Positions 2,175 through 14,460 of a stretch of DNA of 27,443 nucleotides are shown here, piece by piece. The position numbers and the translations under genes were made by a program. How positions within the stretch are numbered: position 1 is the first letter of the stretch; each line of letters begins with the position of its first letter. The notes beneath the pieces were generated by a model that saw only the letters and a list, made by a program, of their open reading frames with translations, was not told where the DNA came from and did no database searches. This DNA is from a virus. Its lineage: Duplodnaviria; Caudoviricetes. The stretch is from positions 1-27,443 of the IMG/VR virus record IMGVR_UViG_3300034777_000409. One strand, given 5' to 3'.

Positions 2175-2590
2175 GGCGTTTAGAAGCGGCTGATCTGCGT
2201 AGCTTAAACATTTTAAAGCACTACCGTATAATTAGAAAGTGGGCTGCTAAGAGTTACAATTTACAAGAAGCAGATTTAGAGCTTTTAATATACTTTGATT
2301 GCTTAGGTCACTTTAAAAAAAACGATTATAAAATAGGCGTGCTTGCTTACAGCTGGGATAATAAAAGATGGAATAGGCTTTTAAAAGAAGATTGGGTAAC
2401 TGTGTGGCGAAAAAGAAACCATACGACCCAAAAGTACAATATATATAAAACTTCCTTTAAGTGTAAGCAAATGATTACGCGCATGTACAAAATGCTCTTA
2501 GACGAGGAGGAAATACCACTGATAAAAAAGCCCCAATCATATTCAGAGCGTATGCTTGGGTTAGCAATAAAAAAAATAAATTATGAGTAG
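2171..2590 (+). CDS. Hypothetical protein, possibly winged-helix DNA-binding
   Basis: ATGA overlap with groES; basic and aromatic-rich; LELLIYF helix followed by a W/K/R-rich segment. The fold is inference. Confidence 0.65.
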   Translation: MRRLEAADLRSLNILKHYRIIRKWAAKSYNLQEADLELLIYFDCLGHFKKNDYKIGVLAYSWDNKRWNRLLKEDWVTVWRKRNHTTQKYNIYKTSFKCKQMITRMYKMLLDEEEIPLIKKPQSYSERMLGLAIKKINYE

Positions 2591-3071
2591 CGATAACACA
2601 AAGTTTACAGTACCCGGTATAAAAGCTAGCCGTATTTCAGCGCGAGTGGACACAAGTAAAATAGGTCAGACGGCAGATTGGAGTAGTATTGGCCAAAATA
2701 TAGCCCAGGGTGGAGACAGTATTGCGGCCGGTATACAAGCCAAAAAAACCCAACTTCAGATAGCTGAGGGGCAAATGGAAGAAGGGGCAAAACCTGTAAA
2801 TAAACTGCAAGCTAAGATTGACAAAGCTACGGCAGAAGGTAAAGACTCAAAAGCAGCTAGACTTCAAGGCAGAAAAGATCGACGCGACGTACGTGATGAT
2901 GCAAGAGCTGAGCGTATTAAAACGCGTAATAAAGAACGAATGGCGCAAACTCAAGCAAGGCAGGATAAAAAAGACGAAAAGTTTGAGGACAGAAGAGAAG
3001 ACAATAATGTTCCATTTAGCAGCTTTAGCCAAGTATTTGATAGATTTTCAACAATAGCAAAAAAATTATAA
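2583..3071 (+). CDS. Highly charged protein with an N-terminal leader shared with the ejection-region protein at 26048
   Basis: Residues 11-52 align without gaps to residues 10-51 of the 26048 ORF (18/42 identical); K/R/D/E-rich helical C-half. Confidence 0.75.
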   Translation: MSSDNTKFTVPGIKASRISARVDTSKIGQTADWSSIGQNIAQGGDSIAAGIQAKKTQLQIAEGQMEEGAKPVNKLQAKIDKATAEGKDSKAARLQGRKDRRDVRDDARAERIKTRNKERMAQTQARQDKKDEKFEDRREDNNVPFSSFSQVFDRFSTIAKKL

Positions 3072-3072
3072 T

Positions 3073-3786
3073 ATGAGTACAACAGCAGCAGCGGTAGCAG
3101 CGGGAAGTAATAACAACAGCGAAGGTTCAAGTAAAATGAAACAATTCATACTTGCCGGAGGCAAAGGTGCGCTTGGAGCTCTTGGCGGGGCAATTAGAGG
3201 TGGCTCAGCAGTTGCAGCGCAGATAAAAACAGCTGATCCAAATGCGGTAGTTGGAAGTTCAAATACGAGTGGTGTGATGGCAGAACCCGAAATGCCAGAA
3301 ATAACTGGTGCCATGATAGGTGGTACAATGCGAAATAACCCCAACGTTATAGAACCAAACTCGACAACTAATTTACAGGACATCCCTGGAATGAGCGCTT
3401 ATGATCTACGCCAAAAATACGCGGAGCTAATAACTAGTGGAACAGCAGGAAGTGGATCAAATAGAAATTTATTAAAAGCGTATGCGTCAAGAATTAAAGA
3501 ATTAAGCTCCGGACCCAATGGGGGCGGTGCATTTGGTGCGTTTACAGGGTTTAATGCCGCAACAAAAGATCCCCATTCTTTTTTGGAAAACCAAGATCAA
3601 TATAGCGTGGAAGAAAATGTTAATAGCATGAATGACTCTATTGAAATGATGGAAACCGGCGGATTTTCCCCAACGGCTAAATCCACAGCAACAGGCGTAT
3701 TTGGAAGTCAAGATCAAAGAGATTTGGCTGTAGGAGCGTCTACATCAGAAAAAATGCTAGCTAGCTTAAGCAGAACTCAAAGTTAA
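3073..3786 (+). CDS. Gly/Ala/Ser-rich hypothetical protein (candidate internal virion protein)
   Basis: 237-aa ORF starting 1 nt after the previous stop; GxxxG-rich segment GGKGALGALGGAIRGG. Confidence 0.7.
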   Translation: MSTTAAAVAAGSNNNSEGSSKMKQFILAGGKGALGALGGAIRGGSAVAAQIKTADPNAVVGSSNTSGVMAEPEMPEITGAMIGGTMRNNPNVIEPNSTTNLQDIPGMSAYDLRQKYAELITSGTAGSGSNRNLLKAYASRIKELSSGPNGGGAFGAFTGFNAATKDPHSFLENQDQYSVEENVNSMNDSIEMMETGGFSPTAKSTATGVFGSQDQRDLAVGASTSEKMLASLSRTQS

Positions 3787-3805
3787 AAATAATAAATAAT
3801 TAATT

Positions 3806-4000
3806 ATGTCAAAACACAATTATAAAAAACCATTGCAAGGAACAGTAGGGGAATCTCACGTATGGGACGGCCCTATTGATTTAGACGAACTTCCACAAGT
3901 TAAAGGAAGTAACCGCGGGCCAAACGGTATGCAAGTAAAAAAGTATCCCTGCAAATCATATGAATTGCAAGGACCAATTACACAACGCGCAAAACAATAA
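3806..4000 (+). CDS. Small hypothetical phage protein (64 aa)
   Basis: AT-rich leader; fills the gap in the operon; GESHVWDGP segment. Confidence 0.7.
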   Translation: MSKHNYKKPLQGTVGESHVWDGPIDLDELPQVKGSNRGPNGMQVKKYPCKSYELQGPITQRAKQ

Positions 4001-4002
4001 TT

Positions 4003-4317
4003 ATGTACGTTCAGCATAACTCACCGTTAGATAAAAAAGGGGATGCTCCGTCTAGAAAGAAATCGAAAGGGTATTACGCTAAAGTAAAAAAAGGTAGCGG
4101 CACCGGGAGTAAAGCTGGCGGTGGCATGACTGAAAAAGGCGTTAAAAAATACCGTAAAGATAATCCAGGTAGTAAGCTATCAACAGCTGTAACTACGCCT
4201 CCTTCGAAGCTTAAAAAAGGAAGTAAAGCGTGGAAACGCAGAAAATCATTTTGCGCACGATCTAAAGGCTGGAAGTCTGAAAGAGGTAGAGCTGCGCGAA
4301 GAAAATGGAATTGCTAA
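4003..4317 (+). CDS. Very basic phage protein (RRKSFCAR type, DUF6321-like)
   Basis: GGGMTEKGVKKYRKDNPGSKL...RRKSFCAR...RRKWNC pattern, recalled from small phage proteins; the DUF number is tentative. Confidence 0.7.
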   Translation: MYVQHNSPLDKKGDAPSRKKSKGYYAKVKKGSGTGSKAGGGMTEKGVKKYRKDNPGSKLSTAVTTPPSKLKKGSKAWKRRKSFCARSKGWKSERGRAARRKWNC

Positions 4318-4318
4318 T

Positions 4319-4486
4319 ATGAAAGATAAAGGGCTTGGCGATACTATAGCGCGTGCTACTAAAGCTACAGGTATAGATAAGTTTGCAAATAGACTAGCAA
4401 ATGGTTTAAATATACCAGGCGGCTGTGGATGCAAAAAGCGGCAAGAATATCTTAATAAGGTTGTACCATACGGAAAACAAAAATAA
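4319..4486 (+). CDS. Small 55-aa protein with GLGDT and CGC motifs (not in the supplied ORF track)
   Basis: ATG at 4319, TAA at 4484-4486 overlapping the next ATG (TAATG). Translation: MKDKGLGDTIARATKATGIDKFANRLANGLNIPGGCGCKKRQEYLNKVVPYGKQK. Confidence 0.85.
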   Translation: MKDKGLGDTIARATKATGIDKFANRLANGLNIPGGCGCKKRQEYLNKVVPYGKQK

Positions 4487-4794
4487 TGGCTTTTAAATTA
4501 AAACCCTTTTACTCATTAGATAATACTCCCATTTATCATGTAGATATGGAAGATGGCGTTTTAGGAAAAGCTAATAACAATGGAACAATTATTGTTAGCA
4601 ATAAAATAAATAGCCCTGTTCAGCTCAAAGATGTTGTAGATCACGAAATGATTCATATAAATCAAATGAAGCGTGGTGATCTAGATTACGACGATAAATA
4701 TGTTTATTGGAAAGGTAAAAAATATTTAAGATCAGAAATGCAGGAAGGAAATAAAAAATTGCCTTGGGAGGCAGAAGCATATAAAAACGCATAA
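4486..4794 (+). CDS. Minimal zincin-type metallopeptidase
   Basis: HEMIH (HEXXH) helix preceded by the LGKA...IIV strands; downstream PWEAEAY provides a candidate third Zn ligand Glu. Confidence 0.8.
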   Translation: MAFKLKPFYSLDNTPIYHVDMEDGVLGKANNNGTIIVSNKINSPVQLKDVVDHEMIHINQMKRGDLDYDDKYVYWKGKKYLRSEMQEGNKKLPWEAEAYKNA

Positions 4795-4804
4795 AATAAA
4801 AAAA

Positions 4805-5191
4805 ATGGCATATACACAAAAACCTGGACGCGGTAATGGAAATCCTATTATGAAGGTGTCCGACAAATTAAAAGAAGGTAGCGGATTAATGTTACTAGGA
4901 GATTTAGACAAGAATGGGGTGCTAAACCCATACGAAAAAAAACGCCAGGCTGCCATTGTAGCAAACACCAGTCCGGCTTCAATGTATGGAGCTCCTATAG
5001 AAATGAAAGCAAATAATGGGCCAATGCCACAGTCCGGCTTAAACTATGGTGCGCCACTAAAAAAAGCGGGCGATGGTGAAGTTCCGCAAAAAACAAATAA
5101 GTGGCTACAAAGTAGCGGAAGCACTGGCGGCTCAACTTATGCTAGCGGAAAAAAGCGTACGATAGTAAAAAAAGCGGCTAACACGCAATAA
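4805..5191 (+). CDS. Small basic protein with an EF-hand-like loop, YGAP repeats and a C-terminal copy of part of the downstream hydrolase
   Basis: DLDKNGVLNPYE fits DxDxNGxxxxxE; YGAPIEMK/YGAPLKK; 5069-5158 duplicates 5467-5556. Confidence 0.75.
   Translation: MAYTQKPGRGNGNPIMKVSDKLKEGSGLMLLGDLDKNGVLNPYEKKRQAAIVANTSPASMYGAPIEMKANNGPMPQSGLNYGAPLKKAGDGEVPQKTNKWLQSSGSTGGSTYASGKKRTIVKKAANTQ
5069..5158 (+). repeat. Imperfect direct repeat, copy 1 (90 nt; partner 5467-5556)
   Basis: Manual ungapped alignment, 71/90 identical, in frame in both genes; shared blocks TTCCGCAAAAAACA, TGGCTACAAAGTAG and GCTCAACTTATGCT. Confidence 0.92.
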
Positions 5192-5208
5192 TATAGATAT
5201 AATTTTAT

Positions 5209-6156
5209 ATGGCTTTTAAACTCAACAACCCAACAGATCCGCCTTCTGGCAGTACAAATACCGACGCTGAAAACTTACGTCAAAAACGTATAGACGCATG
5301 GAAAGCGTTAGACGCTGAGCGTAAAAGAGTCATGAATATCAGAAAAAAAATTGACGAGACTGCTGAAACCGCCGTGGGCGAAATTGAATTTGACGAGGAG
5401 GGGGAAGCAATTACACAGCCATATACCATAGATTACGGAACAAACGACATGAGAGCCGGGGTTAAGGGCGCTGGCGTAATTCCGCAAAAAACATACGAAT
5501 GGCTACAAAGTAGGGGTGGCGCGGGCTGCTCAACTTATGCTTGCGGCATAATGCGCCAAGCAGGTGTGACTGTTCCTAATTCAGTTGGGCCAGAAGGAAT
5601 AACTATAAACAATGTTACGTACAAGGCCGGCGACAAAATGCCAATCATACCAGGTAATGCACAATTTGATGCGGTAGCGCCTATGCTTGGATTTGAATTA
5701 AAAGCTCCTGGTAGTTTGCCAGAAGAAGGCGATGTTACTAGGGTGGGTTATGGCTATGGACTAACAACTCATTCTACAATTCAAACAGGTGGAGGGCGGA
5801 ATGTTTATAATCCAGGAACACCGGAATACGGTTTGAAGGAATCGCAGTACTTCGCTGAGCCATCTGATTTTAAAGGTATGTCCAAAGAGGAGTCGAAAGA
5901 ATTTATAGAGCAAAGTGGAGAGTTTTACCCGGGCCTGAAGGCAAAGCTTGCAGAGGACAAAAGAATATATCCTAACAGATTAATGCAATATACGGGGGAT
6001 TTGCCGGCGTTGCGAAAACAATATAGACAAGCCGTGGAGGCAGCTCCTTACAAACCGGTAGTCACTCTGAAACCAAAACCAATTAAGCTAAGTTCCCCAA
6101 AACCAACAGCACAATTACCAACTAATATGTCGAATTTTTTTAATAGAAATAAATAA
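5209..6156 (+). CDS. Putative NlpC/P60 (papain-fold, Cys-His) peptidoglycan hydrolase/amidase
   Basis: GCSTYACGIMRQAG nucleophile helix, then GDV...THSTI...VYNPG, the order expected for this fold; MAFKL N-terminus; Pro/Lys-rich tail. Confidence 0.6.
   Translation: MAFKLNNPTDPPSGSTNTDAENLRQKRIDAWKALDAERKRVMNIRKKIDETAETAVGEIEFDEEGEAITQPYTIDYGTNDMRAGVKGAGVIPQKTYEWLQSRGGAGCSTYACGIMRQAGVTVPNSVGPEGITINNVTYKAGDKMPIIPGNAQFDAVAPMLGFELKAPGSLPEEGDVTRVGYGYGLTTHSTIQTGGGRNVYNPGTPEYGLKESQYFAEPSDFKGMSKEESKEFIEQSGEFYPGLKAKLAEDKRIYPNRLMQYTGDLPALRKQYRQAVEAAPYKPVVTLKPKPIKLSSPKPTAQLPTNMSNFFNRNK
5467..5556 (+). repeat. Imperfect direct repeat, copy 2 (covers the putative catalytic Cys)
   Basis: 398 nt downstream of copy 1; encodes GAGVIPQKTYEWLQSRGGAGCSTYACGIMR. 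Confidence 0.92.
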
Positions 6157-6170
6157 TTTAATTTAATAAA

Positions 6171-6902
6171 ATGAAAAAGCTAGTTTTTATTTTAGCTTTT
6201 CTTTGCTTAGGCATTACTAATGCTCAAGACAAACTTTCTATATCTAATTATTTTAAAATACCAGAAAGTTATAAAAGAATAGCTGAAACTAATTACCATA
6301 AATGGTTAATTAATAAAGAAATAAAAGTAGAAGAAGTAAAAACTTATGACGGATACACTGTATATGGATTGGGGGATTATTATGCTGCAAAGTTTGATTA
6401 CAATATTGGCAAAAGAAATTTGCATCAGTGCGCGGACGCGGCTATGTATTTTAGAGCCTGGTATCATTTTAATAAAGGCGATATAAATAAAATAACATTT
6501 ACATTTACAGACGGCACAAAGTACAGCTATAGTGAATTTTTAAAACAAAAGAATCTTAGCAATACGTTTAAAAGCTTAAATAAGTATATGGTTATTATAT
6601 GGTCTTATGCTGGAACGTGGTCAATAAACGAGTACGATACGATACCCGTAAGCATAAATAACATGTCTGCTGGTGATATATTTGTTATAGGTGGATTTCC
6701 AGGTCATGCAGTAACTATTGTGGACATAATAGAAAACGAATGTGGAAATAAAAAAATAATGATTTCACAAAGTTTTATGCCAGCGCAAGATCATCATATA
6801 TTATTAAATCCAAAAAGTAATACTGTTTGGTTTGATATAAATGAAGTGCACAATACAGGATTTTACTTTACTGAAAACAATTTAAAAAGATTTAAAATAT
6901 AA
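6171..6902 (+). CDS. DUF4846-like secreted protein (Cys-His motifs)
   Basis: Sec signal MKKLVFILAFLCLGITNA|QD; HQCADA, YAGT, GDIFVIGGFPGHAV and QSFMPAQ motifs recognised as this Bacteroidota-associated family. Confidence 0.8.
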   Translation: MKKLVFILAFLCLGITNAQDKLSISNYFKIPESYKRIAETNYHKWLINKEIKVEEVKTYDGYTVYGLGDYYAAKFDYNIGKRNLHQCADAAMYFRAWYHFNKGDINKITFTFTDGTKYSYSEFLKQKNLSNTFKSLNKYMVIIWSYAGTWSINEYDTIPVSINNMSAGDIFVIGGFPGHAVTIVDIIENECGNKKIMISQSFMPAQDHHILLNPKSNTVWFDINEVHNTGFYFTENNLKRFKI

Positions 6903-7297
6903 TGAAAAAAATTTGGCAGTGGCTTACTGGTTCTGTTATAAAAGAGGTTGGCGAGGTTTTAGATAACCTAACTACAACTAAAGAAGAAAAATTAGAGGCG
7001 CAACGCCTTATAACAGAAATACTAGAAAAAGCAGATAAAGAAGCGCAAGAGCAGGTCACAGCAAGATGGCAAGCGGATATGGCCTCTGATTCTATGTTGT
7101 CTAAAAATATAAGGCCATTAGTATTAATATATTTAACTGTTATATTTACAGTTTGTGCATTTTTTGATGGCAATATAGGTGAGTTTAGCATTGCTGAAGA
7201 ATACATACCTATATTTCAAACACTCTTAGTTACAGTGTATGGAGCCTATTTTGTAGGTCGTAGCTGGGAGAAAGCAAAATCCATGCAATCAAAATAA
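6902..7297 (+). CDS. Holin (3TM / GTA-type holin family)
   Basis: RWQADMASDSMLSKNIRPL motif followed by hydrophobic helices and GAYFVGRSWEK. Confidence 0.8.
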   Translation: MKKIWQWLTGSVIKEVGEVLDNLTTTKEEKLEAQRLITEILEKADKEAQEQVTARWQADMASDSMLSKNIRPLVLIYLTVIFTVCAFFDGNIGEFSIAEEYIPIFQTLLVTVYGAYFVGRSWEKAKSMQSK

Positions 7298-7316
7298 TTA
7301 ACTTAAATTAAATTAA

Positions 7317-7550
7317 ATGACAAAAATTAAAGATAAGCAACTAACTAAAGTACGTGAGCAGCAAACTAAACTAAATGAACTATTAAATCAAATGGGTTAT
7401 TTAGAAGCTCAAAAGCACGGGTTGCTGCATGAGTTTGCAAATGTTAGTAAACAAGTGGAGGATTATAAAAAAGAACTTGAAGCTGAATATGGCCAAGTAA
7501 ATATTAATCTTGAAACTGGAGAATACACAGAGCTAAATAAGGATGGATAA
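7317..7550 (+). CDS. Small coiled-coil hypothetical protein
   Basis: Heptad-like L/Q/E/K pattern ending ELEAEYGQVNINLETGE. Confidence 0.75.
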   Translation: MTKIKDKQLTKVREQQTKLNELLNQMGYLEAQKHGLLHEFANVSKQVEDYKKELEAEYGQVNINLETGEYTELNKDG

Positions 7551-7770
7551 CAATATAAGAAAAATCAGTATTGGCTCTGATTATAAGAACGACGCAATGC
7601 ACTATTCTGTAGGGCAGCAGGTTTATGGTGGGCACGAAATATCAAATATATTATTTGACAATACTGACAACTCTTACAACATTTATATAAAAAAACAAAA
7701 CGAGGTGTTGCCGTGGAAAAAGTTTAATCAAAACATGGCAATATCCGTTGAGTATGATTTAGAGTATTAA
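7543..7770 (+). CDS. Hypothetical phage protein (75 aa)
   Basis: Overlaps both neighbours (translational coupling); beta-rich pattern. Confidence 0.75.
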   Translation: MDNNIRKISIGSDYKNDAMHYSVGQQVYGGHEISNILFDNTDNSYNIYIKKQNEVLPWKKFNQNMAISVEYDLEY

Positions 7771-8375
7771 TGGAGAGCCTGTATAGTTTTATTGTTAAAC
7801 CCGCAGAAGGTAGATACAATAACAAAAAAAAAGTTGGCGACAATGATTTGATATTGAATACCAATATAGAGTCTTTTCGCTATATAAGCAAGGAAGCTAT
7901 TGTTGTAGCCACGCCTAAGGCTTTTAAAACAAATATAGAGCCAGGCGATAAAGTTATTATACATCATAACATATTTAGAAGATATTATGATATTAAAGGC
8001 AAAGAAAAAAATGGCAGTACATATTTTAAAAATGATTTGTATTTTGTCAATATGGATCAAGTCTATATGTATAAAAAAAATAAAACATGGCACGCAAATT
8101 TAGAATATTGTTTTATAAAACCTGTTAAAGAAAACGCTATGTTTTCAATTAATTTTGAGAAGCCCCTAGTTGGTATATTAAAATATGGAAATAAGACGTT
8201 AGAAGCGCTTAAAATAAGCCCAGGAGACTTAATTGGGTTTACACCCTTTGGTGAGTTTGAGTTTATTATAAATAATGAGCGCTTATATTGTATGAAATCA
8301 AATGATATTGTAATTAAATATGACCGTAAAGGAAACGAAAAAGAGTATAATCCAAGCTGGGCGACGCGCAGTTAG
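7770..8375 (+). CDS. Tandem two-domain GroES-like protein
   Basis: Two units, each F-I/V-KP...GD-K/L-V/I; the second has EKPLVG and ends ERLYCMKSNDIV, resembling the GroES C-terminus. Confidence 0.65.
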   Translation: MESLYSFIVKPAEGRYNNKKKVGDNDLILNTNIESFRYISKEAIVVATPKAFKTNIEPGDKVIIHHNIFRRYYDIKGKEKNGSTYFKNDLYFVNMDQVYMYKKNKTWHANLEYCFIKPVKENAMFSINFEKPLVGILKYGNKTLEALKISPGDLIGFTPFGEFEFIINNERLYCMKSNDIVIKYDRKGNEKEYNPSWATRS

Positions 8376-13245: not shown

Positions 13246-14460
13246 ATGGCTGAAGTAAAGCAAGAAGGGGAATTTAAAGTTAAATCCCGTAAAATGAAAA
13301 ACCTAGCTAAGCAAGATAAACCTATTAAAGTAGATCTTGCCGCTAAAAAAGAAGAACAAGCTGCAAAGGTAGAAGCAGTAAAGGTAGATTTAACGGAAAA
13401 AAAAGAAGAAGATGCCGTTCAAACACAGGAGACAAATGATAGCGATGCTGTTATCGAAAAGCAAGAAGACACAGCAGACAGCAAAGAAGTGGTTGAAGAA
13501 GTACGGTCCACCGAAGAAGAATTAAAAGAAGACGTACAGGTAATTCAAGAAATTACAGAAGAAGAAGTTGAAGCAAAAACTGAAGATTTACAAAATCAAG
13601 TACAAGAAGCGGTTCAACAATCCACAGAACAAAATATTAATCTGCCAGAAAATATTCAAAAAGTTGTAGACTTTATGAATGAAACCGGCGGAACATTACA
13701 AGATTATGTTCGCTTAAACGCGGATTACAGTAATATATCTGATGGGGTTTTGTTACAAGAATATTACACTAAAACAAAACCTTATTTAGAACGTGAAGAT
13801 ATTAACCTCTTATTAGAAGATTTTTCATACGATGAAGAATTAGACGACGAGAGAGATGTACGCAAAAAGAAAATAGCGTATAAAGAAGAAATTGCAAAGG
13901 CCAAAAACTATTTGGAAGGCTTAAAGAGTAAATACTACGACGAGATCAAGTTGAGACCGGGCGTTACTCAAGAGCAACAAAAAGCTATGGACTTTTTCAA
14001 TAGATATAACGAAGAGCAACGCAATAATGAGAATATAAGAAAAGGTTTCTTAAATGGTACTAATAATTATTTTGCTAATGAATTCAAAGGTTTTGATTTC
14101 AGTGTTGGTGAAAAGAAATTTAGGTACAACGTTAAAGACACTAATTCCGTTATGGAAAAACAGAGTGATTTAAAAAGCGTCATTGGAAAGTTTCTAAATG
14201 ACAAAGGAGAAGTTAAAAATTACTCTCAATACCATAAAGCCATATATGCGGCCAGAAATGCTGATACTATTGCCCAACATTTTTATGAGCAAGGAAAAAC
14301 AGATGCAGTGCGCGAGATAACAGCTAAATCAAATAATGTTTCAACTGAAATCAGACAAAGTGCACCTGATAGCGTGTTTGTAAATGGGTTAAAAGTAAAA
14401 GTAATTGGTGGCGATGATTCTTCAAAATTAAAAATTAAAAAAATTAAACTTAACAGCTAA
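13246..14460 (+). CDS. Acidic scaffolding-like capsid assembly protein
   Basis: Lies between portal and capsid; E/D/K-rich disordered N-half, helical core, basic C-terminal tip. Confidence 0.65.
   Translation: MAEVKQEGEFKVKSRKMKNLAKQDKPIKVDLAAKKEEQAAKVEAVKVDLTEKKEEDAVQTQETNDSDAVIEKQEDTADSKEVVEEVRSTEEELKEDVQVIQEITEEEVEAKTEDLQNQVQEAVQQSTEQNINLPENIQKVVDFMNETGGTLQDYVRLNADYSNISDGVLLQEYYTKTKPYLEREDINLLLEDFSYDEELDDERDVRKKKIAYKEEIAKAKNYLEGLKSKYYDEIKLRPGVTQEQQKAMDFFNRYNEEQRNNENIRKGFLNGTNNYFANEFKGFDFSVGEKKFRYNVKDTNSVMEKQSDLKSVIGKFLNDKGEVKNYSQYHKAIYAARNADTIAQHFYEQGKTDAVREITAKSNNVSTEIRQSAPDSVFVNGLKVKVIGGDDSSKLKIKKIKLNS

Follow-up and report, generated by a model that had tools for sequence, protein, structure and literature searches.

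The first gene of a variable small-protein cassette in an uncultured marine phage, ORF2583, encodes a basic helical protein. Its N-terminus is an old copy, kept by selection, of the arm that begins ORF26048, probably the second ejection protein of the phage. By analogy with the ejection-protein arms of DEV, N4, T7 and P22 and with small basic proteins packaged in a related lineage, our leading reading, held at even odds, is that ORF2583 docks by this borrowed arm and would thereby enter the head as an optional passenger, possibly to be ejected with the channel.

Both genes lie in a 27-kb genome fragment (27,443 nucleotides; hereafter, the window) that also encodes GroEL, GroES, holin, terminase, portal and capsid proteins and a crAss-type muzzle. 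The source is a short-tailed marine phage, a relative of Cellulophaga phi38:1. Its closest annotated relatives by portal include Maribacter phage Panino, with identities of 51% for ctfjg026, 43% for the Elemoviruses and 34% for Cellulophaga phi38:1/phi40:1. As a practical limit, no cultured member of the window's clade was found, the nearest cultured portals being 43–45% identical, and function is here deduced. PMC7198788 places the marine relatives of phi38:1 in Flavobacteriaceae group 2, to which we infer that the window belongs. A GroEL–GroES pair occupies 374–2174, and an additional GroES-like protein of 201 aa lies ahead of the terminase at 7770–8375. The cassette has as its positional anchor a conserved 139-aa gene 3' of GroES (2171–2590, + strand). 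Pilot, scaffold and ejection protein are our own labels, assigned by position and general knowledge; the likely scaffold, an acidic protein (13246–14460, + strand), is so called by composition and its place between the portal and major capsid genes only. Family scans found no prohead protease among the 30 ORFs of the window, itself a genome fragment, and a promoter scan of it stayed at chance level (35 versus 28 ± 6).

ORF26048 (26048–27442, + strand) is cut by the window end and reaches 516 aa in the relative L003. It follows a 135-aa gene and ORF25312 (25312–26031, + strand), and in L003 precedes a gene of >3,000 aa; it is the middle member of a small-medium-giant trio that follows the tail genes, an order that recurs across pilot loci and in phi40:1. 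ORF25312, which is 239 aa long and Ala/Gly-rich with a hydrophobic N-terminus, is the likely first ejection (pilot) protein. The profile of its family matched phi38:1 gp99 at E = 4.7e-8, whereas the best E against PDB sequences was only 0.096 and tblastn against annotated phages returned no match. In the phi40:1 record, gp98–gp101 are marked as MS/MS virion proteins, including the gp99 counterpart and gp100 in the slot of ORF26048. On the strength of its position, we read ORF26048 as the likely second ejection protein. The two Callevirus phages share gene order and a homologous pilot with the window, and small basic proteins are packaged in their lineage, but no similarity was detected between gp100 and ORF26048.

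In the AlphaFold2 model of an ORF26048 orthologue folded alone (pLDDT 71), long helices span residues 32–87, 92–116 and 124–159, and residues 1–49 fall below pLDDT 50, including the start of the helix predicted from residue 32. A fold search with this model gave three viral models but no PDB match at E ≤ 0.001, the best Z of 6.6 belonging to unrelated helical bundles, and ORF26048 matched no solved ejection protein in sequence or fold. Family scans of ORF26048 and ORF2583 put nothing over the cut-off in Pfam, PHROGs or NCBIfam; the ESM Atlas gave no feature match, and structure matches there were generic long helices. The arm starts 28 of the 29 ORF26048 homologues, the sole exception being fragment-like and beginning further downstream. 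Mean column identity in these homologues was 0.82 at residues 5–18, 0.54 in the Gly/Ser linker, 0.68 at residues 31–52 and 0.70 in the body. The giant protein of the third ejection slot (L003:11565–20720, >3,051 aa) has one HExxH, present also in its Elemo and ctfjg026 counterparts; it has no Pfam match and lacks the D-[FY]-D-x-D motif of polymerases.

ORF2583 (2583–3071, + strand) has 162 aa and a pI of 9.9, and consists of the arm, a linker, a basic helical domain and a short conserved tail. Its arm (2613–2738, + strand) comprises a P-x-I-K-A-x-x-I segment, a variable linker and an amphipathic helix from W33 (hydrophobic moment 0.47). The basic helical domain (residues 73–135; 2799–2987, + strand) holds 21 K/R and 13 D/E, occurs with either of the arm types described below, and is the hallmark of a family that has 47 members among the 5,113 ORFs of the collected loci. 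The tail, F-x-K/R-F-S-x-I-A-K-x-L/I (3036–3068, + strand), is kept in most family members with the window's arm type. Structure prediction was confident for a helical domain at residues 74–139 and unconfident for the arm. ORF2583 has no evident signal peptide or membrane span (maximum 19-residue hydropathy 0.24). Searches of largely open-access literature gave no paper on the arm or the family; the available text of PMC13288928 has nothing on the arm.

The arms of ORF2583 and ORF26048 (26075–26200, + strand) align without gaps with 18 of 42 residues identical, and the shared stretch extends to about 55. The first-pass annotation had reported this identity at the correct coordinates in both genes. 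It had also held that the remainders look unrelated, and BLASTP agreed, with E = 5e-8 across residues 3–67 and all remaining segments at E ≥ 0.64; when the 30 main ORFs of the window are compared, only this pair and one other fall at E < 1e-5. The alignment is significant: its Smith–Waterman score of 96 was reached in none of 5,000 shuffles under any of three schemes (global, 20-aa and 10-aa windows; maxima 65, 69 and 65; 0/15,000 in total). The distance from the start methionine, described earlier as equal, differs by one residue, being 10 residues in ORF2583 and 9 in ORF26048. What ORF2583 keeps of the arm coincides with the best-conserved ejection-protein residues (P10, I12, W32, G36, I39, A40, G43, S45, A48 and G49), and P11 and I13 recur in at least 90% of 22 rows of the ORF2583 family. 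Homologues of both genes, each with its arm, co-occur on the independent contig G003, and contigs from two of four public runs, one possibly the window's own source, span ORF2583 unbroken; ORF2583 is therefore no assembly artefact.

The two copies share 70 of 126 nucleotides and use different codons at 8 of the 18 identical residues. Their divergence (dN 0.56, dS 1.22) points to an old duplication. The arm in ORF2583 is under purifying selection, as the first pass had supposed from synonymous differences. In three pairs with the window, dN/dS values were 0.093/0.81, 0.116/0.72 and 0.03/0.14 (ratios 0.11–0.21), below the ratio of the basic domain in the two more diverged pairs. Among nine non-independent arm pairs dN was lower than dS in seven, and dS was near zero in the other two. 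In several pairs dS was discordant between arm and basic domain, and one basic-domain clade carries five arm subtypes, which indicates that the arm is exchanged as a module. Recent copying at the DNA level from each genome's own ejection gene was rejected, with nucleotide scores of 16–30 and no own-genome preference.

Two arm types occur, PxIKA, as in the window, and YxNP. In distant relatives the protein in the second ejection slot mostly starts with (G)-x-Y-x-N-P followed by a helix. Elements of both types appear in P0049, L071 and L079, and the PxIKA and YxNP ejection-arm profiles align weakly within the helix (29%, E = 6e-4), from which we consider the types probably homologous. A profile of PxIKA ejection arms alone matched ORF2583 at E = 2e-14 among 4,900 ORFs, and at E < 0.2 in the same set matched, besides ejection proteins, the ORF2583 family only. 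The YxNP ejection-arm profile matched ORF2583-family members of other lineages and a bare C-terminal copy in one of these lineages (E = 2e-6 to 1e-4). In profile–profile comparison, PxIKA small-protein arms matched PxIKA ejection arms at 97% (E = 3e-11) versus 2% for YxNP ones, and YxNP small-protein arms matched YxNP ejection arms at 94% (E = 2e-7) versus 45% for PxIKA ones, the latter in the helix only; the small proteins were classed by motif, making the comparison partly circular. The helix pattern is kept in 28 of 60 PxIKA small proteins and degenerate in the other 32, so that the arm varies less in its front half.

To compare arm types within genomes we used 47 genomes that cover both regions, larger contigs picked from the collected loci, of which 5 had a PxIKA ejection arm, 37 were others with a complete cassette and 5 with partial cassettes were set aside. 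All five PxIKA genomes encode a small protein with a PxIKA arm. Four of the 37 others have the ORF2583 family, always with a YxN-type arm, and 33 are without it; arm-bearing look-alikes were seen in the cassettes of G015 (E = 0.003) and G017 (by eye). In G015 the cassette arm is of the YxN type and the genome's own second ejection-slot protein is of neither type. Arm type agreed between small protein and ejection protein in 9 of 9 genomes with both genes, weakly in G009 (5.6 bits) and G023 (4.3 bits). The PxIKA genomes form a single clade on the tree (support 1.0); the agreement thus amounts to one switch, which one recombination would explain. Within this clade the helix half is degenerate in three of five genomes, and the own ejection arm was the best match in just one of five, on which ground we rejected genome-by-genome co-evolution of the arms. 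A further four contigs with a PxIKA ejection gene all end short of the cassette, and arm subtypes such as those of L012, L017 and L143 are unpaired with an ejection gene.

How ORF2583 might dock is suggested by better-studied phages. Helix 25–54 of DEV gp72 binds gp73 (PMC11445570), residues before 52 of N4 gp51 are disordered without gp52 (PMC13434306), and a review proposes the same N-terminal arrangement for T7 gp15 and gp14 (PMC8954989). All three are second genes of a small-medium-giant ejection trio whose N-terminal 50 or so residues are unstructured alone, as is likely for ORF26048, and hold a helix, which in DEV binds the first ejection protein; they differ in that no sequence or fold similarity to the arm or ORF26048 was detected. 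The accessible text of these three papers contained no accessory protein with a copied arm, and that of PMC10172136, where crAss001 gp45 and gp46 are cargo proteins, no precedent for the arm among them. In short-tailed P22, whose ejection proteins are gp7, gp16 and gp20, loading into procapsids goes through N-terminal portions via scaffold, as for gp7 and gp20, both of which require it, but these regions have been mapped only to 134–314 residues (PMC8402733).

The stretch shared by ORF2583 and ORF26048 corresponds to these N-terminal regions. By these analogies the arm would be disordered alone and would bind the first ejection protein, ORF25312, or else the scaffold, and ORF2583 would dock through it at the ejection protein's own docking site; the basic domain, judging by its charge, may bind packaged DNA. 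Supporting this reading, the arm covers the stretch in which the ORF26048 orthologue is modelled without confidence. Small basic proteins are packaged in the related lineage, where phi40:1 gp69 and gp80 are MS/MS virion proteins. The contig L001, on which ORF2583 is identical to the window's, carries a gp80 homologue upstream (L001:1436–1678), an 80-aa basic protein 52% identical to phi38:1 gp80 (E = 1e-12), whose phi40:1 counterpart is the MS/MS virion protein. Several points weigh against docking. The agreement in type is a single switch, with two of its nine cases weak; G015 departs from it, and within the PxIKA clade the own ejection arm is seldom the best match; two of the nine dN/dS pairs do not show dN below dS; the family is absent from most other genomes with a complete cassette, and the helix half is degenerate in more than half of the PxIKA small proteins; ORF26048 itself matches no solved ejection protein; and the DEV and N4 contacts are post-ejection contacts, not loading signals.

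The duplicate hints that the ejection route may be open to accessory proteins. The selection, loading and ordering of ejection proteins in short-tailed phages have been mapped coarsely, in P22 with the large fragments given above. This natural duplicate narrows a candidate loading signal to about 50 residues, with about ten positions, and the two arm types provide material for swap experiments.

An unlikely alternative is that ORF2583 stays in the cell as a decoy or chaperone, its arm filling the pilot's arm-binding site and so delaying premature channel assembly or competing, while heads are being assembled, with ejection proteins from related co-infecting phages. One YxNP lineage indeed has a bare C-terminal arm of 41–43 residues with no cargo behind it (seven distinct sequences, whose profile matches that of YxNP ejection arms at 97%), the window's arm fits the ejection arms of other genomes at least as well as that of its own (scores of 94–115 versus 89), and the gene is optional. 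But the decoy leaves the basic domain without a role, and about half of the family has lost the helical part of the arm; with neither signal peptide nor membrane span, blocking of an incoming phage at the outer membrane would be improbable.

We give a similarly low weight to the idea that copying of a gene fragment brought the arm into the cassette, where it was kept for a job unrelated to ejection, such as self-association or binding a host or phage protein, with the type match reflecting one copying event after the clade arose. The cassette does take up gene fragments, as at 5068–5157, an in-frame 90-nt copy of 5466–5555 (72/90 identical) by which ORF4805 ends in a segment from the interior of ORF5209; recombination between arms and basic domains is free; and the single type switch comes without fine-scale tracking. 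What speaks against it is that, despite a dS above 1, the small protein retains the very residues that the ejection protein conserves best, and that ejection-type arms of two types sit in the cassettes of four or more separate lineages. The copied piece in ORF4805 has lost the Cys residues of its source, and it is absent from the other ORF4805 homologues listed except that of the identical contig L001.

A wider version of docking holds that in this abundant marine phage group the arm is a transferable loading-and-ejection signal: accessory proteins would copy it and switch type with the ejection protein, those of some lineages would expose it by cleavage at S-P motifs found across the cassette, and a short-tailed phage would thus deliver optional cargo via its own DNA-ejection channel. 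We hold this to be unlikely.

Least probable is a general portable address tag that, like the T4 capsid-targeting sequence, routes many unrelated cargos into the head: the arm is N-terminal on two otherwise unrelated proteins and C-terminal as a third module in one lineage, but a combined arm profile gave 55 matches that were all ejection proteins (7) or ORF2583-family members (48) among the best 8,000 candidates of 108–2,000 aa, six-frame scans of the window and of 37–47 kb of G003, G006 and G009 gave two carriers each and no third, and no second copy of their own arm within the fetched parts of phi38:1 (42.5 kb), Elemo 6-3D or ctfjg026. The portable tag proposed earlier stands insofar as the arm is significant, conserved, selected and moves between carriers as a module, and is not supported as regards varied cargo; further tagged ORFs, for which the first pass had proposed a scan, did not appear among the sequences covered. 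The motif it described, a PxIKA segment with an amphipathic helix, is present in ORF2583, but the helical half is missing from about half of the small proteins. The T4 sequence on IPI–III is likewise an N-terminal peptide common to otherwise unrelated, optional, basic proteins, but measures 10–19 residues, is cleaved by gp21 and occurs on diverse proteins (PMC9026906). At about 50 residues, seen on two families in these searches and native to the N-terminus of a protein in a core ejection slot, the arm is not a member of the T4-type capsid-targeting sequences, although it would work similarly.

The cassette has further features of its own. Across it (window 2583–8375 and relatives L230–L275) the motif S-P-[FLA]-x-[QMKL] occurs 64 times in 482 proteins versus 6 expected from shuffles, with core proteins at the background rate, and cassette proteins often begin M-A-[FY]-K-[LMQ]. 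With the broader S/T-P-F/L/A/M-x-Q/M/K/L, the ORF2583 family has 73 matches versus 4.6 in shuffles and 48 scaffolds have 2 versus 2.8; ORF2583 itself is without the motif. Among small proteins, the S-P motif stands ahead of the arm in all 20 of the YxNP type versus 9 of 70 of the PxIKA type, and in long cassette proteins it divides swappable modules, making it a candidate processing or targeting motif. A scaffold-type cut site was rejected, the motif not being enriched in scaffold, portal, pilot or terminase. The window also encodes a conserved 102-aa HExxH cassette protein (4486–4794; 76 homologues in the collected loci) with a weak, below-cut-off match to Peptidase_M76 (E = 7e-4), a candidate processing peptidase. 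Finally, cassette proteins of about 390–420 aa with two ejection-type arms were found in L020 (2663–3934), L022, L024, L025, L304 and L306–L311. One arm is near the N-terminus and the other is the bare C-terminal copy directly after S-P-A-A, where a cut would expose a start like that of a YxNP ejection protein.
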